The position numbers and the translations under genes were made by a program. Positions 8,544 through 23,938 of a stretch of DNA of 44,919 nucleotides are shown one piece after another. The DNA comes from a virus. How positions within the stretch are numbered: the stretch's first letter is position 1; the number at the start of each line of letters is the position of its first letter. The DNA lies in IMG/VR virus record IMGVR_UViG_3300020202_000030, positions 1 through 44,919 of that record; one strand, written 5' to 3'. The notes under the pieces were generated by a model. The model did not search any database and was not told the origin of the DNA. It worked only from the letters and a program-made list of their open reading frames with translations.

Positions 8544-8724
8544 AGAGAATTTAAGAAAGCTGAAGTGGGCTGAGGATATTTTATCACTGGTTGAGAAGAC
8601 GGATAAGCCCGAGTGGTTACTTAGGATTAAGACCGAGCACTGTAAAGAGTTGCTTAGACATCACATGTACATGATTAAAGAAATTCAGAAGGGACTGAGC
8701 GATGCCCGTAGAAATGCAGATTAA
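8515..8724 (+). CDS. Hypothetical protein, 69 aa
   Basis: Track ORF bridging the terL end and the portal start. Overlaps both; start uncertain. Confidence 0.35.
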   Translation: MGTGATLLAKENLRKLKWAEDILSLVEKTDKPEWLLRIKTEHCKELLRHHMYMIKEIQKGLSDARRNAD

Positions 8725-10852
8725 GTCTGAAATAACTCCTGAGATTAAGGAGTTTGTTAAGAAGTTAGCTGGAAAAGTAAGGAGAGACGATGATGACAGG
8801 CAAGTTTGGAAAGACAAGCAAGTCGTCGCTCATAACGCACGACTGGGATTACGAAGACGTACAAATCGTCCGTATCCTGGTGCCTCAGAAGTTCCGATCC
8901 CAATTACTGACAAGTTTATTAAAAAACTCAAAGCACTTTACGTATCCGTTGCCACTCAGAATAAAAAGCAAATTAGTGTGCGAATTGAAGAGGGGTATCC
9001 GGTCACAAATGAAACGAGGGAATCCGCCAACAAGATCGAACGTGCGCTGAATAATTTAATTAAGAAGCGTGACTTCCAGTGGACTAAGAAGGTGACTCTC
9101 TTCGTTGATTACTTTCTTGAAAACGGTCACGCCATATTCAAAGTGATTGAGAAGTTCTTCTCTAAGACCGTCAACCGCACTATCAACATGGACAACTTCT
9201 CTGACGAAGAGAAGAAACAGCTTAAGTCAATGAAAGTTGAGGAGCTTCGTCAAATAGTAGCAGCAAGAGAGGAAATGGACCTCGATGATAAAGAGGATAT
9301 TAAAGAGATTGATCGAATCGTTAAGCAATTTAAGTCGGGGAAAAAGGAGATTAAGTTCACTAAGAGGATAGCTTATTCCGAGCCTACGGTGATACCGGAG
9401 AGAGGCTTGAGGATAATTGTGCCTACTTCTGGAACCGAGCTTCAGCGCCTCCCTCGCATCACACATGACATGTGGATGAACTATCAAGAACTCCGAGACA
9501 TGGCGGATAAGAAAGTGTACGAGAAGGATGTAGTTGACTCACTCGACCCCGATGGCGGCACGAACGATGATTCCATTAATAACCTGTCTTGGTCCTTAGC
9601 TGAGGGCGTCACGAATGAAGAAACGAAAACCGGACTCTTCAACGTCAGAGAATGTCAAACCTGGTACGACAGAAAAAAGTGGGTATTCACTTGGATCGAG
9701 CAAGTTGGGCAGAAGGTTAAGTCGAGTAAGGAGGACTTGGATGATGTACTCGTTCTTCAGGCCATAGAGCTTCCTTACGAACATGGTTTGTGGACTTACG
9801 TTAAGCATGACTTTGAGCTGAAGAATACTCGGTGGTATGCGAGTCGAGGAATCCCTGAGCAGATCAGAGGACTCCACCAGACAATTGAGAAGATGTACAA
9901 CGCGAGACTGATTAGAGACGAGTACAACAATGCTCCAATGTGGCGTGTTAGTAAGCAGCTTGGAATGGCTGGGGACGAGATTAGATTGCGGCCTGGTCAA
10001 GTGGTCGAAGCTGAGGCGGGGGAAATTGAGCAGATTAATAAAGGAGTCACGGTTGATGTCTCAAGTGAGCGACTGGAGCAACAGGCAAAGGCTTATGCTG
10101 AGGAATACCTATCAATCGCTGATTTCACTAATCGTTCGGCGGTCAATGCGGGTGGTGTACGGACTGCGACTGAGATTCAAGCGGTTCAGCAGAACACTGG
10201 GAGGCAGTTAGGGATTGATGTTTCGCTGTTCCTGGAGTCTCTATCCGAAGTCGCCAATCAAATGTACCTCATCCTCAAACAATCGGTCGATGTCCCAAAA
10301 GTAATTGGAGGTGTCTTACTAACGCCTGAGGATTTTCTTGTGAAGTGTTCCGTCTCGTGGGTCGGCTCTCTTGAGTCCACCGATGCTGAGCTTCAACAGT
10401 CCAAAGCACTCCAGCGCATTCAAGTATTGCAACAGGTGGGTATGCCCTCTGGCGTGGTAAGTCCAACCAATATCTACTTCGCACTTAGAGACTGGTTGAC
10501 GAAGGACTCTGATGTTGAGAATCCCGATAACTTTGTCACCTCACCTGAGGATGTACTAATGGGCGAGATTGAGGAGCAACAGTCGGAGCTAGTGAGAATG
10601 ATGAACGGATTCGATGTACAGGTGCATCCAGACGACAACGATGGAGTGCATATCCAAGTGATTGAACAGTATCTCCAGTCACCGCAAGGTCAGCAAAGAA
10701 TGCAACAAGATCCAGAGTTCGCGCAAAGGGTAGAAGCCCATGCGAGTCTACATATTCAATCGGAGGCAATGAAGAATGGTGTCAAAACGGGGCAAGGTCA
10801 AAAAGGCCAAGACCGCAGAAGCCAAGTCGCACGCCAAAGCGCCGCTGCCTGA
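8702..10852 (+). CDS. Portal protein
   Basis: 716 aa, immediately after terL and before scaffold and capsid. Size and position are typical of P22-size portals. No motif-level proof. Confidence 0.75.
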   Translation: MPVEMQIKSEITPEIKEFVKKLAGKVRRDDDDRQVWKDKQVVAHNARLGLRRRTNRPYPGASEVPIPITDKFIKKLKALYVSVATQNKKQISVRIEEGYPVTNETRESANKIERALNNLIKKRDFQWTKKVTLFVDYFLENGHAIFKVIEKFFSKTVNRTINMDNFSDEEKKQLKSMKVEELRQIVAAREEMDLDDKEDIKEIDRIVKQFKSGKKEIKFTKRIAYSEPTVIPERGLRIIVPTSGTELQRLPRITHDMWMNYQELRDMADKKVYEKDVVDSLDPDGGTNDDSINNLSWSLAEGVTNEETKTGLFNVRECQTWYDRKKWVFTWIEQVGQKVKSSKEDLDDVLVLQAIELPYEHGLWTYVKHDFELKNTRWYASRGIPEQIRGLHQTIEKMYNARLIRDEYNNAPMWRVSKQLGMAGDEIRLRPGQVVEAEAGEIEQINKGVTVDVSSERLEQQAKAYAEEYLSIADFTNRSAVNAGGVRTATEIQAVQQNTGRQLGIDVSLFLESLSEVANQMYLILKQSVDVPKVIGGVLLTPEDFLVKCSVSWVGSLESTDAELQQSKALQRIQVLQQVGMPSGVVSPTNIYFALRDWLTKDSDVENPDNFVTSPEDVLMGEIEEQQSELVRMMNGFDVQVHPDDNDGVHIQVIEQYLQSPQGQQRMQQDPEFAQRVEAHASLHIQSEAMKNGVKTGQGQKGQDRRSQVARQSAAA

Positions 10853-11201
10853 GCGCACGGAAGCACTTATTCGTAAAAACGGGTTGATGGTTGAAGAGAT
10901 GCTTAACTCGGAAGTTTGGAAAACTATTGGGGAAGTCCTGATAGACGAGGGTATCGCGTCAGTAGCGGGTAGGAAGACAAATGGCCGATGGCATCACGGA
11001 AGCTTCACGAGAGCAAATAACGAGCCTCTTCCATATCTCCAGGGTTATCAACGCGCCTTAATGGACTTCTCCAATCGCTTAATCGATTTCGTGAAAGCCA
11101 AGGATGACTTGGATAAGAAAAAGAAAGAATCGGAGTTAGAGAGGCATCAACCATTTATTAACCCATTCTTAGAGGAAGACGATGACTACTCCGAAAAATA
11201 A
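10776..11201 (+). CDS. Hypothetical head-module protein, 141 aa
   Basis: Track ORF. GGAGG lies 9 nt upstream of the ATG. Overlaps the portal 3' end by 77 nt in another frame. Confidence 0.5.
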   Translation: MVSKRGKVKKAKTAEAKSHAKAPLPERTEALIRKNGLMVEEMLNSEVWKTIGEVLIDEGIASVAGRKTNGRWHHGSFTRANNEPLPYLQGYQRALMDFSNRLIDFVKAKDDLDKKKKESELERHQPFINPFLEEDDDYSEK

Positions 11202-11361
11202 GATCAAGATTCCTGATTCGTTGAAACAGGCAATTATTAAATCAGCAGAGGTAATGACGCAAGGTCGGCAACGCAACATGATGGACGAAGCGGTGAAGAT
11301 GGGTTCCCACGGAGCTGCGATGTTCCATCCAAACCCGGAGAATGTCAATGGGCAGAAGTGA
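11182..11361 (+). CDS. Hypothetical protein, 59 aa (below cutoff)
   Basis: Hand-translated MTTPKNKIKIPDSLKQAIIKSAEVMTQGRQRNMMDEAVKMGSHGAAMFHPNPENVNGQK. GAGGA SD. Confidence 0.4.
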   Translation: MTTPKNKIKIPDSLKQAIIKSAEVMTQGRQRNMMDEAVKMGSHGAAMFHPNPENVNGQK

Positions 11362-11515
11362 TTTCGAGTGGGTGCGGGAAAGATTGAAGCGTGAGAAGAA
11401 GGAGCCTAATCGTTATTCAGATAATCGTCGGAATTATCTTCTGAGTGAAGCTCACAAGTCCGACGGTCCTGGTGCGGTTAAGGAATTAAAGAAAGAGTTC
11501 AAACTTGGTTCCTAA
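11348..11515 (+). CDS. Hypothetical protein, 55 aa (below cutoff)
   Basis: Hand-translated MGRSDFEWVRERLKREKKEPNRYSDNRRNYLLSEAHKSDGPGAVKELKKEFKLGS. Overlaps both neighbours. Confidence 0.4.
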   Translation: MGRSDFEWVRERLKREKKEPNRYSDNRRNYLLSEAHKSDGPGAVKELKKEFKLGS

Positions 11516-11687
11516 AAAACTGATTGAAGAAATTGAGCGTTGGATAGGCGAGAAGAAATTCGGTCACTTACAGATTAATTTCTCTGAGGGCCGGATAGTG
11601 AATGTGAATCGAGTCGAGTCCATCCGCTTAACGATGATTGGTACTTCCATAGGGGAAGCCACTATTACTAAGGTCGAGGAAGTTTAA
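11505..11687 (+). CDS. Small YezD/DUF2292-like protein, 60 aa
   Basis: KKFGHLQINFSEGRIVNVNRVESIRL resembles the fGsv-l-iqdGkv-q-e core of DUF2292 as I remember it. TTG start. Confidence 0.4.
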   Translation: MVPKKLIEEIERWIGEKKFGHLQINFSEGRIVNVNRVESIRLTMIGTSIGEATITKVEEV

Positions 11688-11727
11688 TTTTGAGTTTCTG
11701 GGTATCTAACAACCCTGGGAGGAATAC

Positions 11728-12750
11728 ATGACAGATAAGGTTATCAGCGAGACACCAGAGGTCAAACCGGCTCCAATTGATGTAATTGATCCAAAGTCTC
11801 CTGGAGAAGTAAATGAAGAGTCTACAGCGAGTCGCCGTGAAAGTATCGAGACTGAGGTCATAACGGAGAACAATACGTTCCCGGATGTCGTGACTGAGGA
11901 AGAACCTAAGCCTGAGGTTAAGGAGGAGGTAAAGGAACCTGAAGTTAAGGAGCCTGAGAAATCCTTCGAGGACAAGGTAAAGGAGAAAGTTCAGAAACGC
12001 ATCGATAAGGAAGTAGCCAAACGTAAGACTCTCGAAGAGGAATTAGCCGAAACTCGCGCCGAGCTTGAGAAGCTTAAAACGCATATCAAGCCTGAGGCCA
12101 AGACGGAGGCTGATTCCAAGCGAGAGCCGACAGATGCTGAGGTAAGAGCCGCGCTTAAAAAAGCCATCGAGGACGGTGATGTAGAGTTTCAAGTCCAGAT
12201 TACCGAATACATGGCTGATCGTAAGGCGAAAGCTGAACGAGCCGCTGCACTGAAAGAAGTTGAGGAGTCCCAGAAGAAACAAACTGAGGAAGCCCAGCGC
12301 CTACAGGCTGATTGGAACAGTTTGGTTATGGATTATATCGTCTATGACGACAAGGGAAATATTGATAACTCCCATGAACTCAATCTCAATAACCAAAACG
12401 GTCAACTCTATAAGACCGCACTCGCTTTGTTTAACGACAAAGAATTGCGCGCGACTCACTACAACGACGCCAATAAGGTGCAAGCCTTTAGGCGAGCGGT
12501 AGGGGACGCTTATAGAGAGATTCACCAACATGGACTCTTGAAGAGTGCTCCAAAGAAAGTTGAACCAATAAGCTCTGGGGAGGATGAAGAATCTTCCAAA
12601 ACGAAGATGCGAAAGGTTGCATCTCTTGCTGAGCCTGGTTCAGATTTTGCCGAGGATACCACTCCCGTTAAAACCCTATCTGACACCGAAAAGGTGATTG
12701 ACGAGATTAAGTCTCGGCGCAAGTTCATTGAAGGACGCGCCAGAGCATAG
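11728..12750 (+). CDS. Scaffolding protein
   Basis: 340 aa, extremely E/K-rich and helical, located between portal and major capsid. Confidence 0.65.
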   Translation: MTDKVISETPEVKPAPIDVIDPKSPGEVNEESTASRRESIETEVITENNTFPDVVTEEEPKPEVKEEVKEPEVKEPEKSFEDKVKEKVQKRIDKEVAKRKTLEEELAETRAELEKLKTHIKPEAKTEADSKREPTDAEVRAALKKAIEDGDVEFQVQITEYMADRKAKAERAAALKEVEESQKKQTEEAQRLQADWNSLVMDYIVYDDKGNIDNSHELNLNNQNGQLYKTALALFNDKELRATHYNDANKVQAFRRAVGDAYREIHQHGLLKSAPKKVEPISSGEDEESSKTKMRKVASLAEPGSDFAEDTTPVKTLSDTEKVIDEIKSRRKFIEGRARA

Positions 12751-12778
12751 TTAGTTAGTTCTAAATCTGGAGTATTAA

Positions 12779-13708
12779 ATGGGTCAGCAACTCTGGTCAG
12801 TTAATAGTTTGGGAGGTTTCCTCTCGAATAACCAACTGTCCAAGCAGGTGCGTCATCGTTCGCAGACCATGCAGAAATTCCGTCAGTTCGTTTCGCCGGA
12901 ACCTGCCGCTGGTTCGAACCGTGGAGAGAAGGTCTTTTTCAATAAGATCAGCAATATCTCTACCGCAGGTGGCACGCTTCTTGAGACGGACACGATTCCT
13001 AAACGGAATTTCACAATCACGCAAGGCACTTTGACGATCACGGAATACGGTAACTCCGTTCCGTTCACGCTCAAAGCTCGCACCTTGAGTGATGTGCAGC
13101 TCCCGGACATCGTGAACACTGTGCTTCGTAACGACATGGCGAAGGTCCTCGACTCGGCTGCCGCAACGCAGTTCAAGACGAACGACTACGTTGCCACTAT
13201 TACGAACACGGCAACCACAACGTTTGGATCGGCTGGTGCGGCGCTTGCTACTGCGGGTGCCAACATGTCCGATAAGAACGTTCGCGACATTGTGGACCGG
13301 ATGAAAACTCTCAACATCCCGACTTATGATGGTGAGAACTACATCTGTATCGCTTCTACGAACTCGATCCGAGGTCTTTACGACTTCTTCGAGGCCAAAG
13401 CGGTTCAAACCACGATGGCTCCTCTTTACCAAGGTGAAGTGGGTCAGTATTACAAGACCCGTTTCGTTGAAGAGACGAACTTCCTCTCCAATGCTGATGG
13501 AAGCAACGGTCTCTACGGCGAAGCAGTGTTCTTTGGTGAAGATGCGGTCCGTGAAGGTATCGCGATTCCTGAAGAAATCCGTATTTCGATCCCGACAGAT
13601 TATGGTCGCGATCAAGGTGCGGCATGGTACGCCCTCTTAGGGTTCCAGCAGGTCTGGGACTTCAGTGCGGATGGCGAAACAAGAATCATTGTTGTCGATT
13701 CACTATAA
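12779..13708 (+). CDS. Major capsid protein
   Basis: 309 aa directly after the scaffold. Codon usage differs from its neighbours (CGT/GGT/ACG-rich) and leaves several antisense frames open, as expected for a highly expressed gene. Confidence 0.75.
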   Translation: MGQQLWSVNSLGGFLSNNQLSKQVRHRSQTMQKFRQFVSPEPAAGSNRGEKVFFNKISNISTAGGTLLETDTIPKRNFTITQGTLTITEYGNSVPFTLKARTLSDVQLPDIVNTVLRNDMAKVLDSAAATQFKTNDYVATITNTATTTFGSAGAALATAGANMSDKNVRDIVDRMKTLNIPTYDGENYICIASTNSIRGLYDFFEAKAVQTTMAPLYQGEVGQYYKTRFVEETNFLSNADGSNGLYGEAVFFGEDAVREGIAIPEEIRISIPTDYGRDQGAAWYALLGFQQVWDFSADGETRIIVVDSL

Positions 13709-13725
13709 GGGAGGAGGAATAAATC

Positions 13726-14139
13726 ATGCCTAGTTCAAAAGGCGGTCGCTCTTATTCTGATCCCTCTTATGGGTCAATTAGAGTAAAGACGTTTGGTCCG
13801 TATACAGCAGGTACTCGTGCAACGGCTATTGTTGACAACTGGAAGCCCATGAACCCGATCACGGTTCTGGACTGGAATTTGTCCAATAGCACTCTCGGAA
13901 CTGGCGGTTCTTCTCAGTGGGTTTTGGCGGCTACTTCTAGCGTCGGAACGGCTGCGTTAGGAACTGCGATTTTCGTGGGTACTCACGCTGCTGGTGCGGT
14001 GGTTGACGGCTCGCTCACAGAAACGAACGTTCCTGCGGATGGAGCAATTCATCTGTATTCGGTTCTTTCGACTGCGGCTGGTCTTACCGTGTCGGTGAAT
14101 GTCACTTATCGCGAAAGGTTCGATTCTAGCGATAACTAG
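13726..14139 (+). CDS. Small head-associated protein, possibly decoration, 137 aa
   Basis: GGGAGGAGG SD. S/T/G/A-rich and beta-rich. Sits immediately after the capsid gene. Confidence 0.55.
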   Translation: MPSSKGGRSYSDPSYGSIRVKTFGPYTAGTRATAIVDNWKPMNPITVLDWNLSNSTLGTGGSSQWVLAATSSVGTAALGTAIFVGTHAAGAVVDGSLTETNVPADGAIHLYSVLSTAAGLTVSVNVTYRERFDSSDN

Positions 14140-14211
14140 TAAGTCGGAATTGGGTGGGGCTGGCTCACAAGGCTGGCTCCACTCAAATCCTTAACCTTAA
14201 AGAAAGGTACA

Positions 14212-15501
14212 ATGCCACATTATAGAGAAGTTAAGAACTGCCGCATTTGTGATTCTCCCCGTTTAGTTAAATACCTTGATCTCGGTGAAGTTCCTCTCTG
14301 TAACTCTCTAGTAACTAACGATAAAAGTCATCCAACTTACGCCCCGTTTCCCATTCAAGTCCTCTTCTGTGAAGAGTGCTGCCTATCTCAGTTAAGCATA
14401 GTGGTGAATCCTGAGATTATGTACAACGATTATGTTTATCACTCGTCTGTTTCTAAGACATTTCGGGAACACTGTTACCAGATGGCGATCAGGCTTCAAG
14501 AGTTGTACAAGTCTATTCCTCATCCATTAGTCGTTGATATTGCCGCCAATGATGGATGCTTACTGGATCAGTTTAAGGCGGCTGGATTTAAACGACTACT
14601 GGGGATTGATCCGGCCAAGAATTTGGCAAATGAGCATTGGACTAAGTTTAGGAATTCAATACAGTACGGCGAGCTTTCGGTCATCCCTCAGCACTCATAC
14701 GGCTTCCTTAATGACTTTTGGTCTGAGAAATTGGCCCTTAGTTGTAGAGACGAGGCTACACAAGGCGCATCATTCATCACCGCTACCAATGTAGTGGCGC
14801 ACGTCGATGATCTTAGAGACTTCTTGAGGGGTGTTCACTGGTTCCTAGATGATACGGGCGTATTCGTGGTCGAGGTTCCTTATCTACATGAGTTAATTAA
14901 GAATAATCAGTTCGATACTATTTATCACGAGCATTTGAGCTACTTTCTTCTTAAGCCTCTCAAAAAGATATTCGCCGCTTGTGGCCTCACTATTATTCGA
15001 GTTGAGAAGTATCCCATCCACGGTGGATCGATAAGAGTCTATGCGGATAAGGGTAGTCATCCCGTTCACGAGTCAGTGGCTGAGATGGAAAAGTTTGAGG
15101 AAGAGGAGAGACTATACAAAGTAGATACTTATATAAAGTTTTCTGATCGAGTTAATGAACTCAGAAAAAATCTCTTGGCTCTCTTTGAGATCCTTCATCA
15201 CAACGGCTCCAAGTTAATGGGTTATGGAGCATCAGCGAAGGGAATAAGTCTACTTAATTACTGCGGTATCCCTAGAAACTACTTATCCGCCATCGTCGAT
15301 GACACCCCAGCCAAGCAGGGAAAATACACTCCAGGTAGCTTGATTCCAATTGTCAACTTTTCTCGCTTCCACACCGATGAACCAGACCACATCTTACTAC
15401 TAGCTTGGAACTTTGCTGATGAGTTGATGATGAAGACTCAGTTTCATAAGGATAGAGGGGGATATTACATCATCCCGATTCCCGAGATCAGAGTGATATG
15501 A
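14212..15501 (+). CDS. Sugar C-methyltransferase-like enzyme (zinc-binding N-domain, class I SAM MTase, C-methyltransferase C-domain)
   Basis: The N-terminal CRICDS...CEECCLSQL zinc motif, DIAANDGCLL SAM-binding motif and the HEHLSYF...IHGGSIRVY tail match the TylC3/EryBIII-type NDP-hexose C-methyltransferase architecture. Confidence 0.8.
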   Translation: MPHYREVKNCRICDSPRLVKYLDLGEVPLCNSLVTNDKSHPTYAPFPIQVLFCEECCLSQLSIVVNPEIMYNDYVYHSSVSKTFREHCYQMAIRLQELYKSIPHPLVVDIAANDGCLLDQFKAAGFKRLLGIDPAKNLANEHWTKFRNSIQYGELSVIPQHSYGFLNDFWSEKLALSCRDEATQGASFITATNVVAHVDDLRDFLRGVHWFLDDTGVFVVEVPYLHELIKNNQFDTIYHEHLSYFLLKPLKKIFAACGLTIIRVEKYPIHGGSIRVYADKGSHPVHESVAEMEKFEEEERLYKVDTYIKFSDRVNELRKNLLALFEILHHNGSKLMGYGASAKGISLLNYCGIPRNYLSAIVDDTPAKQGKYTPGSLIPIVNFSRFHTDEPDHILLLAWNFADELMMKTQFHKDRGGYYIIPIPEIRVI

Positions 15502-16484
15502 AAACTTGCTTCATTTCTAGATTAGGAGGAGCTGGGGACGTTCTTCACGCAGCTCACCTGCCTAAGCTAATTAAAGAGCACTATGGAGTCGATAAGATTG
15601 ATTTCGAGACCAATTATCACGGTATGCACATTCTAACTGGCAATCCCTACATCGATAACCTAATCTTCCTCGATATTAATAAGATTACCTATAACCGAAT
15701 GGTTAAGAACCTGGAATGGGCCAGACAGACTTATGACCTAGTGTTCGATTTCGCCAACACGATTGAGAAAGCTTACTGCACGAATGAAAACGACTGGCGC
15801 TACTACACATCCGACCAGTGGCGCAGGGAGAATCTAGGGACTAAGTCTTATTACGATGTGATGATCGATGCGGCGGGACTACCGGAGTCTTACTACGGGA
15901 ACAGAGCGCGGTTATATTTCACAGATGAAGAACACGCTCAGGCACAGGAGTGGATCACAGAGAAGAAGAAGATTTATGACCAAGTAATACTGGTCAATGT
16001 TTCTGGATCAACTCTCCACAAGAAGTTCATACAAGCTGAGCCCGTTTGTCGAAAGATTCTAGATCGGTACCCAAAGAGCCTCATCATCCTCAGCGGTGAC
16101 GAGTATTGTAAAGACCAAGTTTTCGCGCATGAGAGAGTGATTTCCTACGTTGGTAGTAAGGTGAATGGGTTTCGCTCAGTCTCGCTTAAGTGCAAATATG
16201 TTGATCTAACAATCAGCTTAGAATCCGGTCTGGCTCTAGTTGCTCACTCCTGGGACGCCCCCACACTTCATTTACTCACCGCCGCCAGTTGGGATAACCA
16301 CATTAAGTACGCTAAGAACGCTTATTGGCTCCAGGCGTCGGTTCCGTGTTCACCGTGTCACAAGAATCCTAGAGACTATTTTGGGTGTCCTGTAATTGAT
16401 AAACACCCAGCTTGTATATTTTTCGATGAAGAGAAGATTATGGAAAAAGTTGAGGAGGCACTTTGTGTCTCAAAAACCGCTTAA
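15498..16484 (+). CDS. Glycosyltransferase family 9 (heptosyltransferase-like), copy 1
   Basis: N-terminal ISRLGGAGDVLHA, then ESGLALVAHSWDAP, and a C-terminal CSPC...C...C motif, as in WaaC/WaaF-type enzymes. ATGA coupling with the upstream gene. Confidence 0.7.
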   Translation: MKTCFISRLGGAGDVLHAAHLPKLIKEHYGVDKIDFETNYHGMHILTGNPYIDNLIFLDINKITYNRMVKNLEWARQTYDLVFDFANTIEKAYCTNENDWRYYTSDQWRRENLGTKSYYDVMIDAAGLPESYYGNRARLYFTDEEHAQAQEWITEKKKIYDQVILVNVSGSTLHKKFIQAEPVCRKILDRYPKSLIILSGDEYCKDQVFAHERVISYVGSKVNGFRSVSLKCKYVDLTISLESGLALVAHSWDAPTLHLLTAASWDNHIKYAKNAYWLQASVPCSPCHKNPRDYFGCPVIDKHPACIFFDEEKIMEKVEEALCVSKTA

Positions 16485-16683
16485 GATTAGTCACAACATA
16501 AAGCTTGTATCCAAGAATGGGGTTACTTTTCTTTACGTCAATAACCAATACACGATGAGAGACATAGTAAAGAAAGACACACGAGGCGAACGATACTTTA
16601 TTCCGAATTACGCTCCTTATTTAAGCAAGAAGGATCTCTTAAAGATTAAGCGGTGGATTGAAAGGGCTATTAAGGATGCTTAA
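16465..16683 (+). CDS. Hypothetical protein, 72 aa
   Basis: GTG 6 nt after GAGGAGG, inside track ORF 16396..16683. Confidence 0.4.
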   Translation: MSQKPLKISHNIKLVSKNGVTFLYVNNQYTMRDIVKKDTRGERYFIPNYAPYLSKKDLLKIKRWIERAIKDA

Positions 16684-16855
16684 TACAGGTCATTACACAT
16701 GGAAAGTTGTCTCTAAAAACATTTTTAGTGACGAAGATTTAGAAAAATGGCTTCAAGAGATGAGCGAAAAATACATTTTTTATCAATTAAAACTATATGA
16801 AGATAGATCGGTTAGATTGATATGCAGAGAATGGGTGTTGGATGTCAATCGCTAA
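16658..16855 (+). CDS. Hypothetical protein, 59-65 aa
   Basis: Track ORF. Start uncertain: TTG at 16658 or ATG at 16676. Confidence 0.35.
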   Translation: MKGLLRMLNTGHYTWKVVSKNIFSDEDLEKWLQEMSEKYIFYQLKLYEDRSVRLICREWVLDVNR

Positions 16856-17279
16856 ACAACTTCAAGAAGTAGTTCCATTCTTTATCCAAGACTGTCCTCT
16901 ATGCGGTCGCTCGAATCGGATAGTAGTGAAGGGTATCTACCGCAAAGACGATAAGTCGCCGATTGAATTCTATCCAGACATGGGCTACTCATTCTGCAAC
17001 TGTAAAGCGATCTTCTACACACGGCCTGAGAATGTGACTGATCCAGTGAGTTATGAGCCTGATGAGAATGGGATTATCACTTTACCGGACCCATTCTTTG
17101 CTTGGCCTAATCCCTATGACTTCCTTTACTGGAATGTCCGTAAGTACGAGATCATCTGGGACATGCACTCCTTAGTGAATCACCTTAAGGACATGGGTTA
17201 CGAGGTGATCTCATACTGGCGCGATTTTGATTTGGATTCTAAAACTCCCCAACACTTTCACATAAAGGTTAAGCAATGA
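16842..17279 (+). CDS. Zinc-ribbon protein, 145 aa
   Basis: CPLC...CNC resembles the N-terminus (CPNC...CSC) of the methyltransferase at 19534. Confidence 0.5.
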   Translation: MSIAKQLQEVVPFFIQDCPLCGRSNRIVVKGIYRKDDKSPIEFYPDMGYSFCNCKAIFYTRPENVTDPVSYEPDENGIITLPDPFFAWPNPYDFLYWNVRKYEIIWDMHSLVNHLKDMGYEVISYWRDFDLDSKTPQHFHIKVKQ

Positions 17280-17776
17280 GGCCAACAATAGTAGAGGTTA
17301 AGAAACTATTTGGAGACAAGCCAATCATAGGAGCAGAGATAGGGGTCAATACTGGGGCAAATGCAGGGGATATTCTTAGTTACTTACCCAACTTAACGAT
17401 GCTTCATCTAGTTGACGCATGGAAAGCCAATGAGGACTACCAAGATCAAGGTCTACAGGATCAGTGCTTAGCAATGGTGAAGAAGAGATTCGAGACCGAT
17501 AAAAGGTGCCTCATTATGCACATGCCGTCAGTAGAAGCTGCCCGGTTTATACCAGATAACTCACTCGATTTCGTCTACATAGATGCTGAGCATAGATACT
17601 TTGGGATTAGGGCTGACATTGATGCTTGGCTTCCTAAGGTTAAGAAGGGCGGAATCATCGGGGGACATGATTATGATTACCCGATAAGACCAGGAGTGAA
17701 AGAAGCAGTCGATGAGGTGTTTGGAAACCGGGTTAACTTGCATGACTCTCAAAACGATTGGTGGGTGTACCTGTGA
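17276..17776 (+). CDS. Class I SAM-dependent methyltransferase (Methyltransf_24-like)
   Basis: GAEIGVNTGANAG motif I, and FVYIDAEHRY...WLPKVKKGGIIGGHDY typical of this family. ATGA coupling. Confidence 0.7.
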   Translation: MRPTIVEVKKLFGDKPIIGAEIGVNTGANAGDILSYLPNLTMLHLVDAWKANEDYQDQGLQDQCLAMVKKRFETDKRCLIMHMPSVEAARFIPDNSLDFVYIDAEHRYFGIRADIDAWLPKVKKGGIIGGHDYDYPIRPGVKEAVDEVFGNRVNLHDSQNDWWVYL

Positions 17777-18555
17777 AGAAAATATGCGTCATTATTCCGA
17801 TGTTTGGTAAAGCTGAGCTGACTAAGAGGTGTATCCAGTTTGTTAGGGAGAATGCTGGGGTAGATCATCACATATTGGTAGTAGATGATGGATCGCCTGA
17901 GCCTTTCTATGACCCATATACGGAGACTCTAAGACTTGAGAAGAATACCGGCTTCACCAATGCTGTTAATCAAGGCATCCTTCACTGCGGGGACTACTTT
18001 GATTACATCCACTTACTTAATAACGATACTGAGCCTCAGAAAGACTTCCTTAAAATTCTCTACGAAGCTATGGAGGCTCAGCCTGTTATAGGAATAGCTG
18101 CATCGGCCAGAATCTTAGACACTGATAGTCCACACAAAATTGAACTATACGGAGTTGACCTGATCCGTGGCTATCAGCAGTGTACCAATGGGAATGTCCC
18201 TAATGACATCTTCTATACCCACTGGGTTCCTTTGTGTTCGGCTCTCCTTCGGCACGAAATGATTCGCTACATAGGGCTACTTGATCGCCGTATGAAGATA
18301 TGGTGTTCCGATAATGACTACTGTATTAGGGCCAATTTCAATGGCTACAACGTTGCGTTACTAATGAAATCTAAAGTTAAGCACATTCACGCAGCGACTA
18401 CTAAGACGGTAAAAACCATCACACCAGAAGATGACCAGCGCGTATTGATTGAGAAGATGGCAGGTATGCAGTACGCAGACTTGATGAAGAGACTGCCACT
18501 GGATGCAGAACAAAACACTTGGGGGAAAATTGAATTCACGGTGTATCAGAAATGA
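17773..18555 (+). CDS. Glycosyltransferase family 2
   Basis: CVIIPMFG...ILVVDDGSPEP and LLNNDTE motifs. The GTG at 17773 overlaps the upstream stop (GTGA); the track start is 17758. Confidence 0.8.
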   Translation: MKKICVIIPMFGKAELTKRCIQFVRENAGVDHHILVVDDGSPEPFYDPYTETLRLEKNTGFTNAVNQGILHCGDYFDYIHLLNNDTEPQKDFLKILYEAMEAQPVIGIAASARILDTDSPHKIELYGVDLIRGYQQCTNGNVPNDIFYTHWVPLCSALLRHEMIRYIGLLDRRMKIWCSDNDYCIRANFNGYNVALLMKSKVKHIHAATTKTVKTITPEDDQRVLIEKMAGMQYADLMKRLPLDAEQNTWGKIEFTVYQK

Positions 18556-19547
18556 ATAACAGAGTCCTGATAGTTCGTCTTGGCGCTTACGGCGACGTTA
18601 TTATTACGACACCTTTAGTTCGCAAACTCCACGAAGACGCGATGGACATTATATACCTCACTTCCGAACGTGGGATGGAAGTGTTAAAGGGTAGTCCCTA
18701 TATAAAGAAGCTTATCCTGCATCCCAAGGATTCAGTCCCTATTGAGAAGCTTGGCGACCACATCAAGCAGATCGCTAAGAAGCATCAGTGCGAGCGGATA
18801 ATTGATCTTTGTGAATCGATTGAAGTGGCGCTAAGTCTCCATCCGAGATCACCTGAATATAATCTCCCTAAATATGAGCGCAGAGCCAAGTTTGAACGCA
18901 ACTTTTATGAGTACACTTTTGAGTTTGCCAAAGAGGATCACTATGGGGCGTTACTACCGGACCTCTTCTTTGATGATAAGGAGACTAAGGAGGCTCAATC
19001 ATATCTCAAGCCTGGATTCAATCTCCTAGTAGGCATGAGTGGAAGCGGGACAAATAAGACTTATCCTTGGACTGAGGCTCTATGCGGCACCATTATGAAA
19101 GAGTTTGGAGATAAGGTTCACATAATCACAGTAGGGGATGAGAGGTGCCAAATAATTGAGCCAATTGGTCCCACTATCACCAATCTCTCAGGCAAGATAC
19201 CAATGAGAATAGCCATGTGCTTAACGGGACTGGTAGACTGCGTAATCTCTCCTGACACTGGCCTACTGCATGCCGCCGGGTGCTACCAAACTCCTAAGAT
19301 CGGCCTCCTGGGTCACAACACTAAGGAGGTCATCACTAAACACTTCCTTAACGACTACTCAGTTGAGTCCGATGAAAATCTAGCTGAGTGTTCCCCGTGT
19401 TTTCGTCTCATCTACAGCATGAAACTCCAGTGTCCGATTGATCCTAATACTGGGGGTGCGTACTGCATGAGTAAAGGGATTCGGCCTGAGTTAGTTTATG
19501 AGAAATTTAAACAAGTCTATGAGAAGGTGAAAAGTGATAAATCCTAA
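18552..19547 (+). CDS. Glycosyltransferase family 9 (heptosyltransferase-like), copy 2
   Basis: VLIVRLGAYGDVIITTPL, PDTGLLHAAGCYQTP and a CSPC...C...C tail. ATGA coupling. Confidence 0.75.
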   Translation: MNNRVLIVRLGAYGDVIITTPLVRKLHEDAMDIIYLTSERGMEVLKGSPYIKKLILHPKDSVPIEKLGDHIKQIAKKHQCERIIDLCESIEVALSLHPRSPEYNLPKYERRAKFERNFYEYTFEFAKEDHYGALLPDLFFDDKETKEAQSYLKPGFNLLVGMSGSGTNKTYPWTEALCGTIMKEFGDKVHIITVGDERCQIIEPIGPTITNLSGKIPMRIAMCLTGLVDCVISPDTGLLHAAGCYQTPKIGLLGHNTKEVITKHFLNDYSVESDENLAECSPCFRLIYSMKLQCPIDPNTGGAYCMSKGIRPELVYEKFKQVYEKVKSDKS

Positions 19548-20304
19548 GAAAGAGGCTACTCAAATAGTCGATAACAAAGTTGAGATAGCTGTGTGTCCAA
19601 ACTGTGAGTCTGTTACTACTCACATGTACTTTATGCAAGACGCCGCTACCAAGCAGCAGTCTAAGTGGTACTCATGCTCATGTGGGATAGTTTGGCAAGC
19701 TCATTACAAAGGATGCGTGTATGACCAAGCTTATCTCGATAACTTACCCACTGGCAGTAAATATGACACTGCTCTTAAAGCCATCCCCAAAATAATCGCG
19801 CCTCTCGCTGAAGAGATGATGTACGGACGCAAAATGTTAATGATAGGCCATTATCCGTCTCAAATAGAAGAGTTTAAACGTAGGGGATGGGTCACTTTTT
19901 CCATTGATAAGAATACCGCCTACACAACTTCTGAGCGCATGATCGCCGCAGACTTTGAGACATTCCAGTTCGCTGAAGACGAGAAATACTCAATGATTTG
20001 GGCTTATCATGTTATCGAAAGTTTTAACAATCCCTTTGAATCCTTAAAAAAAGCATTCTCTCTTCTTGCTGAAGATGGTATAATTTTCATAGGAACACCT
20101 GATTCGGATTTCCTCTATACCAGAGGCCCAGCAGGGTTCGTCCACTGGAAACGTGATTACAATCACATCCTTTGGAATCGCAAGTCTCTAACATCCTACC
20201 TAGAAAAACTAGGCTTCAATGTGGTTCTGGCACGTAAGAACTATGAGCCTAGATTTCCATTTACTGATGATATCTGGCTCTTAGCCCAAAAACGATTTTA
20301 TTGA
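19534..20304 (+). CDS. Zinc-ribbon-fused SAM-dependent methyltransferase-like protein
   Basis: N-terminal CPNC...CSC, then an MLMIGHYPS ... LAEDGIIFIGTPD pattern of class I MTases. Weaker match than the other two. Confidence 0.6.
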   Translation: MINPKKEATQIVDNKVEIAVCPNCESVTTHMYFMQDAATKQQSKWYSCSCGIVWQAHYKGCVYDQAYLDNLPTGSKYDTALKAIPKIIAPLAEEMMYGRKMLMIGHYPSQIEEFKRRGWVTFSIDKNTAYTTSERMIAADFETFQFAEDEKYSMIWAYHVIESFNNPFESLKKAFSLLAEDGIIFIGTPDSDFLYTRGPAGFVHWKRDYNHILWNRKSLTSYLEKLGFNVVLARKNYEPRFPFTDDIWLLAQKRFY

Positions 20305-20319
20305 GCTAGGAGGTTTCAA

Positions 20320-20769
20320 ATGGCTACCAAAACCGTGACTATAGACACGGGTGAATGGGCCTATCCTGACGTTTACGGTATTACTCACCTTGTAACAAAT
20401 GCCCAAACTTTCACTTTCGAACTCACCGATGGCGGCGCTTCCGCTGTTACTTACCAGCAAGATTTAGCTAAATCAGTTACCACGACTGATGGTCTACGTA
20501 TACACATGCGTCCTCAGGCAAGACCTGCTTCTGGAACAGCTGGAAACGAGCGTCGCACTTGGGGTCCCACGGCTGACGCCCAAGACAACACGACTATTTA
20601 CTCACAAGCTGGTGAGTTTGTAACCGAGTGTCCGGTGACTGGGATTATCCAATACTGGAAGCCAGCTACTATTAATGTCAATAACGTTGATGCTCCGACG
20701 GCTATCACAGCCACGTTTGAAGACCAGTACGGTAACTCGTTCACCTGGACTAACGTAACTATTTCGTAA
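20320..20769 (+). CDS. Small T-rich virion-module protein, 149 aa
   Basis: AGGAGG SD. Beta-rich and Thr-rich. First gene after the transferase block. Confidence 0.6.
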   Translation: MATKTVTIDTGEWAYPDVYGITHLVTNAQTFTFELTDGGASAVTYQQDLAKSVTTTDGLRIHMRPQARPASGTAGNERRTWGPTADAQDNTTIYSQAGEFVTECPVTGIIQYWKPATINVNNVDAPTAITATFEDQYGNSFTWTNVTIS

Positions 20770-21770
20770 TGACCAACGATACGTATAAACGTATTCAGGT
20801 TCGTGCTCAAGCGATGGTGCAAAACACCAGCACATCGACTTCGAATGCGAATGATTTATTGCCCAAGGTTAAGGACTGGTGCCGTTCTCGTTATGACAGG
20901 ATTTTACGTGCTTTTCCTTGGGCTGAGCTGAATCGTTCTTATAGCTTATCTGTTACAGCCTCCACTCGTGATTATGCCTTAAGATACGATCTCGATTCCA
21001 TCATCAAGATATGGGATACAACTAATGGGAAAGAGATAACAGCTCAGGATATAAGAGATCACATTAGATTCACCGCACCAGTCCTTGAAGTCGCTGGTAA
21101 TGTTCTCACGGGGAACCCCGACGAATACATCGAAATAGGTTCCAAATCAGTTTCCGCTCTCCTGTCCACCGCCGATAGAGTCCAAGTCCTATCCTCATCC
21201 GCCTCAGATATCACGCCTAAGGTCATCAGAATAACTGGAGAGGTGAGCGGAATTGCTGTTTCAGAGACTATTACGTTAACTGGGACGACTGCCGCTGATT
21301 CCACCAATACCTTTGATTCAGGTGCTGAGCTTACCATCTCGGCTGGCACCTCCGACGGCACACTATCCGATTTAGCTGGAGTAGTAACGGTCCGTGAGAA
21401 GACAACCACATCGAACGTTCTTTGCAAAATAGCCCCCGAAGAACGCGCTCCTCTCTTCAAATGGATTCGTTTGTCTCCTACTCCAGCGTCAGCAATTACT
21501 GCACAAGTTTGGTACAAGCGGAAATGGAAACCACTCAACGATAACAATGATGTTCCGATTATCCCATGTGCCAATGAAATTGTTGAGGGAGTAGTTGCTG
21601 ATGCTCTTTGGGAGGACGGTCAGGAAGCAGCGGCGCAAGCTCAAGAGTCTAAGTTTTCTAACTTAGTGACTGAGCTTTGGATCAGTCGGCGTCCCAGAAA
21701 CTTAATTAAGCAAGTAGTCCCTGACAACATCGACCAAGACTTCACTAATGACAGGATTTTCTACGGTTAA
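20769..21770 (+). CDS. Putative head-tail adaptor / tail tubular A-like protein
   Basis: 333 aa. TAATG coupling. Function assigned from position only. Confidence 0.5.
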   Translation: MTNDTYKRIQVRAQAMVQNTSTSTSNANDLLPKVKDWCRSRYDRILRAFPWAELNRSYSLSVTASTRDYALRYDLDSIIKIWDTTNGKEITAQDIRDHIRFTAPVLEVAGNVLTGNPDEYIEIGSKSVSALLSTADRVQVLSSSASDITPKVIRITGEVSGIAVSETITLTGTTAADSTNTFDSGAELTISAGTSDGTLSDLAGVVTVREKTTTSNVLCKIAPEERAPLFKWIRLSPTPASAITAQVWYKRKWKPLNDNNDVPIIPCANEIVEGVVADALWEDGQEAAAQAQESKFSNLVTELWISRRPRNLIKQVVPDNIDQDFTNDRIFYG

Positions 21771-23938
21771 TGCCTCTACTTACTGCGAATAGAGTTAAGG
21801 AGCGGGTAGCCGATCTCTCAGGAGGTCAAAACAGTGGTGCTGAGCCGTCAGCTCTACTTCCGAACCAAGCTGAGTTACTTGAAAACTGTATTATCACCAA
21901 AAAAGGTAAGTGTGAGCAGCGAAAAGGACTGACGAGATTAGGGGACAATCCTGACACTCTGATCTCTCTATGGACATTCGACGCATCAGACGCAACCGAT
22001 GATAAGGGGTCAAACGATGGAACAGCAACCGCAATCACCTATGTCGCGGGAAAGTTTGGAAAGTGCGCGTCGTTTAACGGCACAACTTCGTCTATTTCAG
22101 TCCCGGCAAGTTCCACGATTAACGTTAACAGCATGGGGGCTTTTAGAATATCCGCATGGATATATGCGGACTCTGATGGAGAAAACGATGAGGGGAGAAT
22201 CGTTGACAAGTTCTCAGGCTCTAGTACGGGATATCGTCTATTCGTGCATAGTCAGTCGGGCAGCACTGTTAAATTAGACTTTGAAGTTGGTCATGCTACT
22301 ACTAATACGAGAGTAATAACCTCAACCACTCTTACGACAGGTGCTTGGCACAAGGTCGATGCTGTTTATAACTCAGATAAATCAGGGGACATTTACATCA
22401 ATGGAGCGATTGCTACTTACTCAACAGATACCACCGGAGTGGATGCGGTATCGAACGACAGTGCTGTTGCCCTATATATAGGAAACAACTCCGCTGGCAC
22501 AAGGACATTCAATGGTGAGATTGATGATGTCCGTATATATGACGGCTCCTTTACCGCCGATGATGTTGAGATTAAAAAGATTCTTGGCATTACTCATTTC
22601 TCAGTGGGCGGCACCCTCGACACTATTATCCGCGCAAAAGACACTCAGATTCAACGTTTGTCCTCAGACTTTAAAGAATGGACTAACATAACCGGCCTCA
22701 CTTCATTAACCACTGGTCTCACTACCAACTTTGTTCAGGCGAATGATAAGTTATTCGTCCTTAATGGCACTGATAATGTTTTCTCAATTGATTCTGCACT
22801 CTCAGTAACAGATGAGGGCAATACCAACAGTGATCCTCCTAAAACAACTTTCGGGGAATGGGCTTCCAATAACCGGTTATTCCTCTCAGGCTCCCTAACA
22901 GACTCCGAACGTGATGATGTCTGGTTCTCAGACTCTCTAGCGCCGCAGACATTCAATCGCTCTACGAACAAGTTTCAGGTTGCGAAGGGTCGCGGCGGCA
23001 AGGTGAGCTGGCTCAAGATGTTTAAAGAGTTTGAGCTGATTATCTACAAAGATACCAATATTTATGTTCTTAACATGGACGGTAGCACGCCACTGACAGA
23101 TTGGGATATCAAACCACTATCAATCGCTATCGGTTGTCCGGCTGGCCGCACTGTTCAGGATATTGGCAACGATCACATCTTTCTCGCTAATGACGGGGTT
23201 AGGCTTCTTTCGCGCACCACTTTCGATAAGCTTCGTGTTGGTGTCATCTCTGAACCTATTCAGGACATTATGGATGACATTAATCAGGATGCCATTCAGC
23301 ATTCAGTTGGCTACTACGAAAACGGTCTCTATCTCCTCGGTGTTCCAGTAGGCACATCCACTATCCCTAATCGCTGGATGATATGGGACTCAATCGCTGC
23401 TGTGCGTAATGGTGATCCTAACTCAGCTTGGACTACTATCCCTGAGGATACTTGGAACCTTGCTTGCTTAACTTCATTTGGTTTTGGGGACAACGTTAAG
23501 ACCATTGTTGGTGGAGATGCCAGAGCCTTATCACTTTGCTACAAGGTTCTGTCCGGCAATACCGACAATGGAGCCACTGTTAATCAAACTATCATCTCTC
23601 GTGAGCACAACTTTGGTGATCCGTTCATTAAGAAGATATTTGATCCCACTCAAATGGTAGCTCTAACAGGATCAGACGCCACTTACTCTTACCTCATTGA
23701 CGTTGATCGCGCTGGATTCACTCAGTTCAACACGGCTGATCTAGCTGGCTCATTACAGACGCCTTTCACGACTCCAGCGACTACTGGTGGGGCCGAGATT
23801 GAACCAGTTAACACTCGTACTAAGTTCGCAGGTAGGGGCAACTCAGTCAGAGTCAAAGTTACTAACACTACCTACAACGCTCGTCCAACTTTCTTAGAAT
23901 ACACGATTCATGCTCGTCCTTATGAAGGGAGAATGTAA
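21770..23938 (+). CDS. Large tail (nozzle / tubular B-like) protein with an N-proximal LamG/concanavalin-like domain
   Basis: 722 aa. WHKVDAVYN...GEIDDVRIYDGSFTADDV is the LamG_3 signature. The C-terminal two thirds are beta-propeller-like. Confidence 0.65.
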   Translation: MPLLTANRVKERVADLSGGQNSGAEPSALLPNQAELLENCIITKKGKCEQRKGLTRLGDNPDTLISLWTFDASDATDDKGSNDGTATAITYVAGKFGKCASFNGTTSSISVPASSTINVNSMGAFRISAWIYADSDGENDEGRIVDKFSGSSTGYRLFVHSQSGSTVKLDFEVGHATTNTRVITSTTLTTGAWHKVDAVYNSDKSGDIYINGAIATYSTDTTGVDAVSNDSAVALYIGNNSAGTRTFNGEIDDVRIYDGSFTADDVEIKKILGITHFSVGGTLDTIIRAKDTQIQRLSSDFKEWTNITGLTSLTTGLTTNFVQANDKLFVLNGTDNVFSIDSALSVTDEGNTNSDPPKTTFGEWASNNRLFLSGSLTDSERDDVWFSDSLAPQTFNRSTNKFQVAKGRGGKVSWLKMFKEFELIIYKDTNIYVLNMDGSTPLTDWDIKPLSIAIGCPAGRTVQDIGNDHIFLANDGVRLLSRTTFDKLRVGVISEPIQDIMDDINQDAIQHSVGYYENGLYLLGVPVGTSTIPNRWMIWDSIAAVRNGDPNSAWTTIPEDTWNLACLTSFGFGDNVKTIVGGDARALSLCYKVLSGNTDNGATVNQTIISREHNFGDPFIKKIFDPTQMVALTGSDATYSYLIDVDRAGFTQFNTADLAGSLQTPFTTPATTGGAEIEPVNTRTKFAGRGNSVRVKVTNTTYNARPTFLEYTIHARPYEGRM

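Follow-up and report, generated by a model that had tools for sequence, protein, structure and literature searches.

The virus genome held in IMG/VR record IMGVR_UViG_3300020202_000030 (positions 1 to 44,919; this whole stretch of 44,919 nucleotides is called the window below) carries at 14212-20304 a cassette of glycosyltransferase and methyltransferase genes that probably serves the cytoplasmic, late-acting glycosylation of the phage's own virion surface proteins. All cassette genes, here named C1 to C9, are co-directional on the plus strand and mostly overlap-coupled, and they lie between the genes for the major capsid protein and a predicted cement protein (p137) on one side and those for a small protein (p149) and the head-to-tail adaptor on the other. 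Starts and stops overlap by 4 nt at 15498, 17276 and 18552 and by 14 nt at 16842 and 19534, while the flanking gaps measure exactly 72 nt (14140-14211) and 15 nt (20305-20319). An initial annotation of this DNA had described such a block at this point of the head-to-tail gene string; its coordinates, gene order and gap lengths hold, and the observation is confirmed, having been understated in scope. The analysis establishes the enzyme families of the cassette, their conserved catalytic motifs, the synteny of the block and its distribution.

The initial annotation had presented the cassette as spliced into the virion operon and had suggested a search of related phages for the same insertion point. 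The same insertion point was found across the relatives, which makes the word spliced misleading. A capsid-seeded scan of IMG/VR, followed by tblastn of the cassette genes in the related loci, found capsid homologues 65-85% identical in about 25 contigs, and in about 20 uncultivated relatives of this group the cassette stands at the same place, between capsid plus p137 and p149 plus adaptor. Every sufficiently long relative with a capsid protein at least 65% identical has it. The cassette is therefore ancestral to the whole clade, rather than a recent insertion peculiar to the window genome. The set conserved among relatives comprises C1, C2, C5, C7, C8 and C9; C3 and C4 were seen in the window only, and C6 is rare, as only one of 11 complete relatives (L098) has it. 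L098 also carries a B12-binding radical-SAM (S-adenosylmethionine) enzyme and lacks a C1 orthologue, another relative (L101) has an RmlD/epimerase-like gene after its C1 orthologue, and others add a CmcI-type rhamnosyl O-methyltransferase (2.6e-52), an extra GT2 (glycosyltransferase family 2) enzyme or another O-methyltransferase-like gene. A conserved core with swapped tailoring enzymes suggests the pattern of glycan loci under diversifying selection. L098 itself is a complete relative (NCBI PJEL010000519.1, 45,259 nt; locus 8572-18030) from the draft assembly PJEL of a benthic foraminifer (PMC6783311), presumably derived from a foraminifer-associated bacterium or phage; its cassette also holds an extra 113-aa open reading frame (ORF).

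At larger distances the cassette is reduced to a single gene. In phages and prophages whose capsid proteins are 37-52% identical to that of the window, the capsid gene is followed, at 0.4-4 kb downstream, by a single ORF of 500-580 aa that encodes a class I SAM methyltransferase (N-terminal, about 190 residues) joined to a GT9 (glycosyltransferase family 9) domain (C-terminal, about 315 residues), an arrangement written here as MT::GT9. Its carriers include prophages of the cultured strains Paraburkholderia rhynchosiae WSM 3937 (NZ_PNXY01000026.1, about 42-63 kb), Paraburkholderia sp. C35 and Pseudothauera rhizosphaerae CC-YHH848, and also of Polaromonas and others. The single-copy GT9 genes of these distant phages are closer to C8 than to C2, and C9, which follows C8, is the counterpart of the methyltransferase domain fused to GT9; C8 plus C9 therefore correspond to the ancestral fusion and C2 to a later duplicate. 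An alignment-based scan with the GT9 domain only matched at least 570 IMG/VR contigs. Capsid linkage was scored in the best 80 loci, and in 60 of them a gene of the same capsid family precedes GT9 on its strand (median distance 1.5 kb, maximum 5.8 kb). The capsid gene was missing in 19, all with less than 5 kb of upstream sequence, and no locus with 5 kb or more lacked it. Furthermore, among 1.84 billion cluster representatives there were 284 GT9-family clusters (50% identity) at E<=1e-30 and 1149 at E<=1e-10, and many representatives were 450-600 aa long with the GT9 domain C-terminal. When C2, C8, p137 and a Paraburkholderia MT::GT9 protein were compared by tblastn with 50,697 GenBank phage records, neither GT9 nor p137 had a homologue there; the one part of the MT::GT9 query with matches was its methyltransferase, in cyanophage genes. 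Our literature search found GT9 genes in phage head modules described nowhere. One further locus (L091; CAVVLX010000006.1, a 942,606-nt contig, at about 10000-14600) combines a partial capsid match with a 529-aa MT::GT9-type ORF in a bin labelled as a Thermoplasmata archaeon; it is either a mis-binned bacterial contig or an archaeal provirus of this lineage.

The two GT9-type enzymes of the window, C2 (GT9a; 15498..16484, plus strand) and C8 (GT9b; 18552..19547, plus strand), both end in a four-cysteine (Cys4) motif. C8 matches Pfam Glyco_transf_9 (1.2e-7; 31.7 bits against a gathering cut-off of 22) and TIGR02193 (4.3e-9). C2 has no Pfam match and was assigned by paralogy with C8 (25% identity over 298 aa, E 5e-21) and by its AlphaFold2 (AF2) model (mean predicted local distance difference test score, pLDDT, 80; predicted template-modelling score, pTM, 0.80), the top Foldseek matches being 3tov (2.9e-10), WaaF (1psw; 4.5e-8) and WaaC. 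In this model C2 has the two Rossmann-like lobes of a GT-B fold, and a joint family profile matches the GT9 structure 3tov at 5.3e-11. Residues D14, K175, E242-S-G and C284/C287/C297/C306 of C2 are invariant among 31 homologues, and D15, K169 and G237 are invariant across 38 diverse members of this GT9 subfamily. HMMER alignments place the GD, K-x-(W/Y)-P and (D/E)(T/S)G motifs on the 'GDV', 'KRWP' and 'DSGLMH/DTGLSH' segments of 3tov, WaaF and WaaC, whose residue roles we take from the literature on WaaC and TibC (PMC4358343). Since the catalytic Asp, the Lys and the Gly of (D/E)(T/S)G are invariant, the phage GT9 proteins are predicted to be most likely active. Additionally, the C-terminal CxPC(H)...C...C motif is nearly invariant (55 of 61 copies); we know of no such Cys4 motif in WaaC or WaaF.

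The invariance of these residues also bears on whether the proteins are enzymes at all. The obligate linkage of GT9 to the capsid gene, together with the capsid-like conservation of GT9a, might suggest a domesticated head-assembly or structural factor that merely keeps the glycosyltransferase fold, but such a role is very improbable for a family in which the catalytic Asp, the phosphate-binding Lys and the nucleotide-sugar motif are (near-)invariant throughout, whose members have, in the same protein or beside it, a methyltransferase that retains its SAM motifs, and which is accompanied by sugar-tailoring enzymes.

As to what the GT9 enzymes act on, C2 and C8 score far below the cut-off of the curated WaaC/WaaF/RfaQ equivalog models (36 versus 185 bits), so that they are not orthologues of the lipopolysaccharide (LPS) heptosyltransferases. 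WaaC and WaaF are all the same their closest characterised kin, which brings in the main rival explanation, remodelling of the host envelope. According to it, methylated heptose or deoxyhexose would be added to the nascent LPS core, another glycoconjugate or a surface protein, in the lysogen or late in infection, with masking of the receptor and a block to superinfection or re-adsorption as the result. The phage is temperate (an integrase and a helix-turn-helix (HTH) repressor-like gene are present), as this explanation would have it. The initial annotation had set host LPS aside on the ground that no flippase is encoded, which is a weak argument: the normal substrate of GT9 enzymes is lipid A-core, which they modify at the cytoplasmic face and which the host's MsbA then flips, and core-modifying cytoplasmic transferases in general work without a phage flippase. 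However, one position between capsid and adaptor genes is held down to about 37% capsid identity and in hosts of different phyla, unlike what is seen for sporadic morons or conversion genes. Over 11 relatives, moreover, C2 has a mean identity (71%) like that of the capsid protein (76%) and the adaptor (74%), whereas C8, the GT2 enzyme, C1 and C9 reach 47-55%. GT9a is thus conserved like structural proteins and not like host-range determinants, which fits a phage-encoded rather than a host-specific acceptor; the difference from the other enzymes fits a division of labour in which one of them recognises a conserved acceptor of the phage and the rest vary the glycan. Features of lysogenic conversion are absent, as had been stated at the outset: the cassette is not near int/att, the integrase gene lying 16 kb away, there are no membrane proteins of the Gtr, Wzy or Oac type, and the only reminder of them is a weak GtrB-like match of C7. 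All cassette proteins seem to be soluble: a 19-residue hydropathy scan detected no membrane-spanning segment in any of them, and the highest value (at most 1.6) belongs to the N-terminal Rossmann strand of C8 alone. Taken together, we consider envelope remodelling unlikely, albeit the strongest of the alternatives, and glycosylation of the virion the better reading.

The other enzymes of the cassette point to the synthesis of a methylated glycan. C1 (14212..15501, plus strand) is an NDP-hexose 3-C-methyltransferase of the TylC3/TcaB9/MycarC type, with Pfam matches to Methyltransf_13 (residues 10-71, 1.4e-17), Methyltransf_23 (102-263, 1.9e-12) and Methyltransf_14 (268-424, 1.7e-49) and full-length matches in the PDB to 4rv9, a D-mycarose 3-C-methyltransferase (3e-70, residues 5-426), TcaB9 (2.4e-63) and 5t64 (4.8e-61). 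With its CxxC pairs (Cys10/13 and Cys53/56), the sequence fits the three-part architecture of 3-C-methyltransferases, in which a predicted Zn-binding N-terminal domain precedes the SAM-binding domain and the Methyltransf_14 C-terminal domain. C-methylation of an NDP-4-keto sugar is therefore the predicted reaction, and the context is consistent with it, given the RmlD/epimerase-like reductase after the C1 orthologue of L101 and the B12-radical-SAM enzyme of L098 in a cassette without C1. As the substrate of such an enzyme is a nucleotide sugar and not a polymer, and as all the acceptors proposed below are candidates, the cassette might instead deplete the nucleotide sugars of the host (ADP-heptose, dTDP-4-keto-6-deoxyglucose), convert them or make a soluble glycoside, with no phage-specific macromolecular target. 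This kind of metabolic sabotage seems quite improbable, however, since three glycosyltransferases with an intact acceptor-activating Asp imply transfer to an acceptor, strict synteny with the capsid gene over hundreds of contigs is unexpected for a metabolic auxiliary gene, and no genes for aglycone biosynthesis were found in the genome.

C7 (17758/17773..18555, plus strand) is a soluble GT2 glycosyltransferase with the GT-A fold type (Glycos_transf_2, 8e-15) that resembles rhamnosyltransferases; its sub-cut-off matches were to the NCBIfam rhamnosyltransferase (2.5e-8) and MftF (2.5e-10) models, and the GtrB-like PHROG match was weak (1.8e-4). C9 (19534..20304, plus strand) is a class I SAM methyltransferase (Methyltransf_23, 7.9e-13) fused to an N-terminal zinc ribbon (CPNC...CSC). 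C6 (17276..17776, plus strand) is an accessory class I SAM methyltransferase of the Methyltransf_24 family (8.1e-13). Single-sequence searches of the PDB with C6, C7 and C9 were uninformative, C9 matching designed repeat proteins only. C5 (16842..17279, plus strand) had been annotated as a zinc ribbon. The ribbon is there, but the protein is more precisely a methyltransferase relic, an internally deleted paralogue of the C9 type: its sequence can be aligned with two stretches, residues 1-71 and 183-254, of a 262-aa zinc-ribbon methyltransferase that is intact in a relative (L012), holds the same locus position there and is itself a C9 paralogue (E 9e-23). Because only the two ends of that enzyme align, the SAM-binding core (about 110 residues) has been deleted. 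Most relatives keep the short form, and in L098 a C5-type protein is fused to a Methyltransf_24 domain (351 aa), which suggests cooperation between C5 and C6; C5 is probably non-catalytic and a partner of C6. The two small unknowns of the initial annotation are indeed orphans. C3 (16465..16683, plus strand; 72 aa in the gene calls of public assemblies, 95 aa if started at a TTG at 16396) and C4 (16676..16855, plus strand; 59 aa as called, 65 aa from a TTG at 16658) have no Pfam or PHROG family above threshold and no tblastn match in related loci. All the enzyme assignments first proposed are borne out by Pfam, PDB matches or paralogy, that of C2 by paralogy and AF2 fold.

PHROG labels the C6 family 'DNA methyltransferase', and phage enzymes with GT-A and GT-B folds are known to glycosylate DNA containing 5-hydroxymethylcytosine or 5-hydroxymethyluracil (bioRxiv 10.1101/2023.12.21.572611), so another conceivable target of the glycosyltransferases and methyltransferases is the bases of phage DNA, which are modified in this way in T4 and by the methyltransferase/5mYOX/glycosyltransferase pathways of metagenomic phages. 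Such DNA hypermodification is hardly credible here. Pfam and PHROG searches of the larger ORFs of the complete genome (not all ORFs below about 100 aa were scanned) found no TET/5mYOX enzyme, dCMP/dUMP hydroxymethylase, thymidylate-synthase-like protein or C5-cytosine methyltransferase. In addition, the genes lie in the head module and not beside replication genes, C1 is a nucleotide-sugar enzyme, and GT9 best matches heptosyltransferases, T4 beta-glucosyltransferase being absent among the 50 Foldseek matches listed.

Our proposal for the virion can now be set out in steps. The host would supply ADP-heptose, the usual donor of GT9 enzymes, and a dTDP-4-keto-6-deoxyhexose, which C1 would C-methylate. 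C7 and the two GT9 enzymes C2 and C8 would then work in the cytoplasm, ahead of virion assembly or in the course of it, and move the C-methylated sugar and heptose-type sugars to Ser/Thr residues of a surface protein that is abundant in the virion. The glycan would be O-methylated by C9 and by C6, which the C5 relic perhaps holds in position. The acceptor would most likely be p137, and/or the capsid protein or p149. The ancestral state is a single bifunctional MT::GT9 enzyme by the capsid gene, from which the lineage of the window has grown its variable multi-enzyme cassette; the methylated glycans on display would then differ from one related phage to the next. What we infer are the donor sugars, the acceptor, the timing and the benefit. 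Among the observations in favour of a role in the virion, the GT9 gene is tied to one capsid family across very deep divergence, and the gene for p137, a predicted virion jelly roll, and the capsid gene both precede a conserved hairpin.

p137 (13726..14139, plus strand) is predicted to be a jelly-roll capsid cement or decoration protein with a highly conserved disordered N-terminal arm. Its AF2 model (pLDDT 81) has nine beta strands, with residues 1-17 disordered, and Foldseek related it to small cyanophage 'virion structural proteins', collagen-repeat phage-fibre knobs, chain H of the Pam1 capsid and the exosporium protein ExsFA. The trimeric cement protein of Pam1 grips the E-loops of the capsid through a long N-terminal loop (PMC9698820). 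These features make p137 a candidate glycan acceptor. Under strict thresholds, p137 and GT9 occurred together in 22 loci, GT9 without p137 in 10, p137 without GT9 in none and neither in 24 (Fisher p 3e-8, not corrected for phylogeny). The C-terminal tail of 7-10 residues that follows the last strand in p137 copies of GT9-positive phages (for example ...RERFDSSDN in the clade of the window and ...PGA(N/S/T)VT(A/D) in proteobacterial prophages) was absent from five GT9-negative copies; with a small sample and an uncertain alignment, this GT9-linked tail is a lead and not evidence. A Thr-rich loop of the capsid protein was also considered as a correlate of GT9, and was rejected as it fails to separate GT9-positive from GT9-negative phages.

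The 72-nt gap that separates p137 from the cassette had been given its right length, but it is not empty. About 7 nt past the p137 stop codon it holds a GC-rich hairpin without a U-tract (14146..14190, plus strand; detected by fold energy). The segment 14125-14225 has a folding free energy of -36 kcal/mol (z -4.6), and none of 200 shuffled sequences folded as well. Nearly all relatives have a hairpin at the same position with different stem sequences, followed in some copies by a T-run. It is probably a leaky terminator or an mRNA 3' stabiliser that divides capsid and p137 from the cassette, which would keep the output of capsid and p137 high and leave the cassette, adaptor and tail genes to be expressed by read-through at a lower level. 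A scan for promoter and terminator consensus sequences stayed at or below shuffle expectation, the 72-nt gap included, and was uninformative. The claim that the cassette must be transcribed late with the structural proteins was accordingly overstated: late transcription is deduced from gene position, and the gap holds a terminator-like hairpin. For envelope remodelling, the hairpin could in principle mark a separate transcription unit, but a gap where the scan stays at background offers no promoter-like site from which to start one.

Beyond the cassette, p149 (20320..20769, plus strand) is a small Thr-rich, beta-rich protein without a Pfam or PHROG family. Its position after the cassette is conserved and its sequence variable among relatives (mean identity 50%), and it is possibly a second surface protein. 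Some relatives have extra genes between p149 and adaptor, namely a 205-aa LamG (lectin-fold) protein in L100 (13530-14147) and L101 (13393-14013) and a 529-aa Gly/Thr/Ser-rich protein with no Pfam family in L019 (17214-18803). Variable surface-type proteins have a second hot spot just 3' of the cassette.

Several points weigh against glycosylation of the virion. Relaxed searches find weak p137 homologues after the capsid gene of phages that lack GT9, among them a Vibrio phage, so that p137 is the cement protein of the lineage and not a GT9-specific gene, and the identity levels of p137 and of the transferases do not co-vary (n=11). The characterised GT9 enzymes act on the LPS core, by a route that needs no phage flippase, and C2 and C8 are outside the bacterial autotransporter heptosyltransferase (BAHT) family, whose members heptosylate proteins. 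Late timing would follow from gene order, while the promoter scan is at background, and the virion glycan and its acceptor are predictions. The reading proposed in the initial annotation is strengthened by the linkage of capsid and GT9 genes, while its glycan and acceptor are still deduced from gene content; we regard it as plausible and now better supported. A more specific version, which we put forward only tentatively, is that of a widespread and so far undescribed phage system for protein O-heptosylation, in which a capsid-linked GT9-Cys4 enzyme with its ancestrally fused methyltransferase would put methyl-heptose on trimeric p137, perhaps on the C-terminal tail of GT9-positive copies. The lineage of the window would have enlarged this module to a hypervariable cassette and so added a C-methyl branched deoxysugar. 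If this were true, environmental podophages of diderm bacteria would carry lineage-specific capsid 'glyco-serotypes'.

The genome that carries the cassette has an exact 127-nt terminal direct repeat (window 1-127 = 44793-44919), which shows that the window was assembled as a circle and represents a complete genome of about 44.8 kb. It belongs to a temperate, podovirus-like phage with an adaptor of the SU10 type. PHROG searches identified small and large terminase genes (6220 and 6948), and a probable portal is encoded in the window. The major capsid protein (12779..13708, plus strand) is of the HK97-fold family (Phage_capsid_4 8e-7, Phage_capsid 7e-6, PHROG major head protein 7e-14), and the SU10-type head-to-tail adaptor (20769..21770, plus strand; Pfam SU10_adaptor 4.9e-10) forms the downstream boundary of the module. 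The protein after the adaptor (21770-23938, 722 aa) combines a LamG/ConA-like lectin domain (5e-22) with a region of the PHROG 'amidase' family, which is unusual for a slot normally held by a nozzle or head-closure protein. Pfam and PHROG searches of the genome detected a LamG-domain protein and a tail-fibre protein, and the window further encodes the HTH repressor-like protein, a PD-(D/E)XK nuclease, an AAA_24 protein and RusA. One relative (L099, 18075-18377) has a 100-aa GNAT acetyltransferase (Acetyltransf_1) among its tail genes that has no counterpart in the window.

The integrase is a tyrosine integrase (36430-37614), and the intergenic region 3' of its gene (37615-38237) has repeated ATGCTCACA(T/C)...ATGCTCACATGTATGTC motifs at both ends that look like the arm-type integrase binding sites of an attP. 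No tRNA gene was found anywhere in the window. A nucleotide search with a 10-kb region against the 50,697 GenBank phage records gave no match. The nearest cultured phages are Vibrio crassostreae podophages, with a capsid protein 43% identical and only four small ORFs between the capsid and adaptor genes. The closest contigs from metagenome-assembled genomes were binned as Planctomycetia or Pirellulales, but these are short, and one was binned as Woesearchaeota, which is probably a mis-binning; the host assignment of the window phage is weak.

With respect to its significance, virus-encoded virion glycosylation is known, while the enzyme families described here had not previously been linked to phage particles. 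Our literature search found phage-encoded virion glycosylation reported only for mycobacteriophages, other mentions citing that work, and found no report for phages of diderm bacteria. If the proposal is correct, capsid self-glycosylation would be a common trait among podophages from the environment and among prophages, in Proteobacteria as well as in other diderm phyla, and enzyme types so far known for LPS core synthesis and branched-sugar antibiotics would be used on virions. This would affect models of the virion surface with regard to stability, adsorption to particles or mucus, grazing and antibody recognition. GT9 would gain a new protein-glycosylating branch, and compact MT::GT9 enzymes would become available for glyco-engineering. 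The Paraburkholderia and Pseudothauera prophages in cultured strains make the question of virion glycosylation directly testable.

Among known systems, the conversion loci gtrABC, oac and wzy of P22-like phages, Sf phages and D3 likewise belong to temperate phages with glycan-modifying enzymes, and C7 is weakly GtrB-like. The present cassette differs from them in not standing beside int/att, in encoding no membrane proteins, in belonging to the late structural gene string and in its deeply kept position. WaaC and WaaF (CAZy GT9) give the best fold and profile matches and share with the phage enzymes the GT-B fold, the N-terminal G-D motif, the conserved Lys and the (D/E)(T/S)G motif, whereas the phage GT9 proteins have the extra Cys4 motif, are frequently fused to a methyltransferase and are encoded in a head module instead of a waa locus.

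The Cys4 motif recalls TibC, a protein O-heptosyltransferase with a Cys4 iron finger (Cys339/342/358/370) in its C-lobe that is needed for substrate recognition (PMC4358343). In the numbering of that study, the conserved Lys230 and the first finger cysteine, Cys339, of TibC are 109 residues apart, compared with 109 in C2 and 111 in C8, and the cysteines are spaced x2, x10-13, x7-10 in phage GT9 proteins and x2, x15, x11 in TibC. The likeness of C2 and C8 to TibC is one of resemblance only, and the AF2 model has low confidence at residues 285-295 of C2. Membership of C2 and C8 in the BAHT family (TibC/AAH), which the Cys4 motif had raised, was rejected, as they have neither the N-terminal beta-barrel nor a sequence match. 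Both begin at the first Rossmann strand, with the GD motif at residues 13-15, and the N-terminal extension of their distant relatives is a methyltransferase. TibC did not match the GT9 family profile at E up to 10, and in the Foldseek search with C2 it ranked 38th (4rap; E 3e-3, template-modelling score 0.42), below WaaC and WaaF.

The precedent in mycobacteriophages, cited in the initial annotation, is real. In Corndog (Cluster O), the head operon includes gp35-38, one O-methyltransferase gene plus three for glycosyltransferases, placed between those for portal and protease, and the enzymes were not found in virions (PMC4351075); they are reported to modify capsid and tail-tube subunits (Freeman et al. 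2023 via PMC11600133). Corndog and Che8 (Cluster F) likewise have glycosyltransferase and methyltransferase genes inside a head-morphogenesis operon. They differ from the window in several respects: here the set includes two GT9 enzymes, a sugar C-methyltransferase and zinc-ribbon methyltransferases, its function is a prediction, the phage is temperate and podovirus-like with diderm hosts, and the cassette lies between capsid/cement genes and adaptor. Homology of the enzymes was likewise not seen, tblastn with C2, C8 and the Paraburkholderia MT::GT9 protein finding no GT9 match in the 50,697 GenBank phage records.

Lastly, the capsid glycan system of the chlorovirus PBCV-1 offers a parallel at the level of enzyme architecture. 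Its A064R protein is a fusion of two glycosyltransferase domains and a methyltransferase that builds a methylated, rhamnose-containing glycan on the major capsid protein (PMC7826918). PBCV-1 is a giant eukaryotic virus without sequence kinship to the phages described here, and the glycosyltransferase families, genome context and glycan linkage differ; in both cases, however, the enzymes are virus-encoded and cytoplasmic, and the glycosyltransferase fused to a sugar O-methyltransferase in PBCV-1 is like the MT::GT9 fusions found next to the phage capsid genes.

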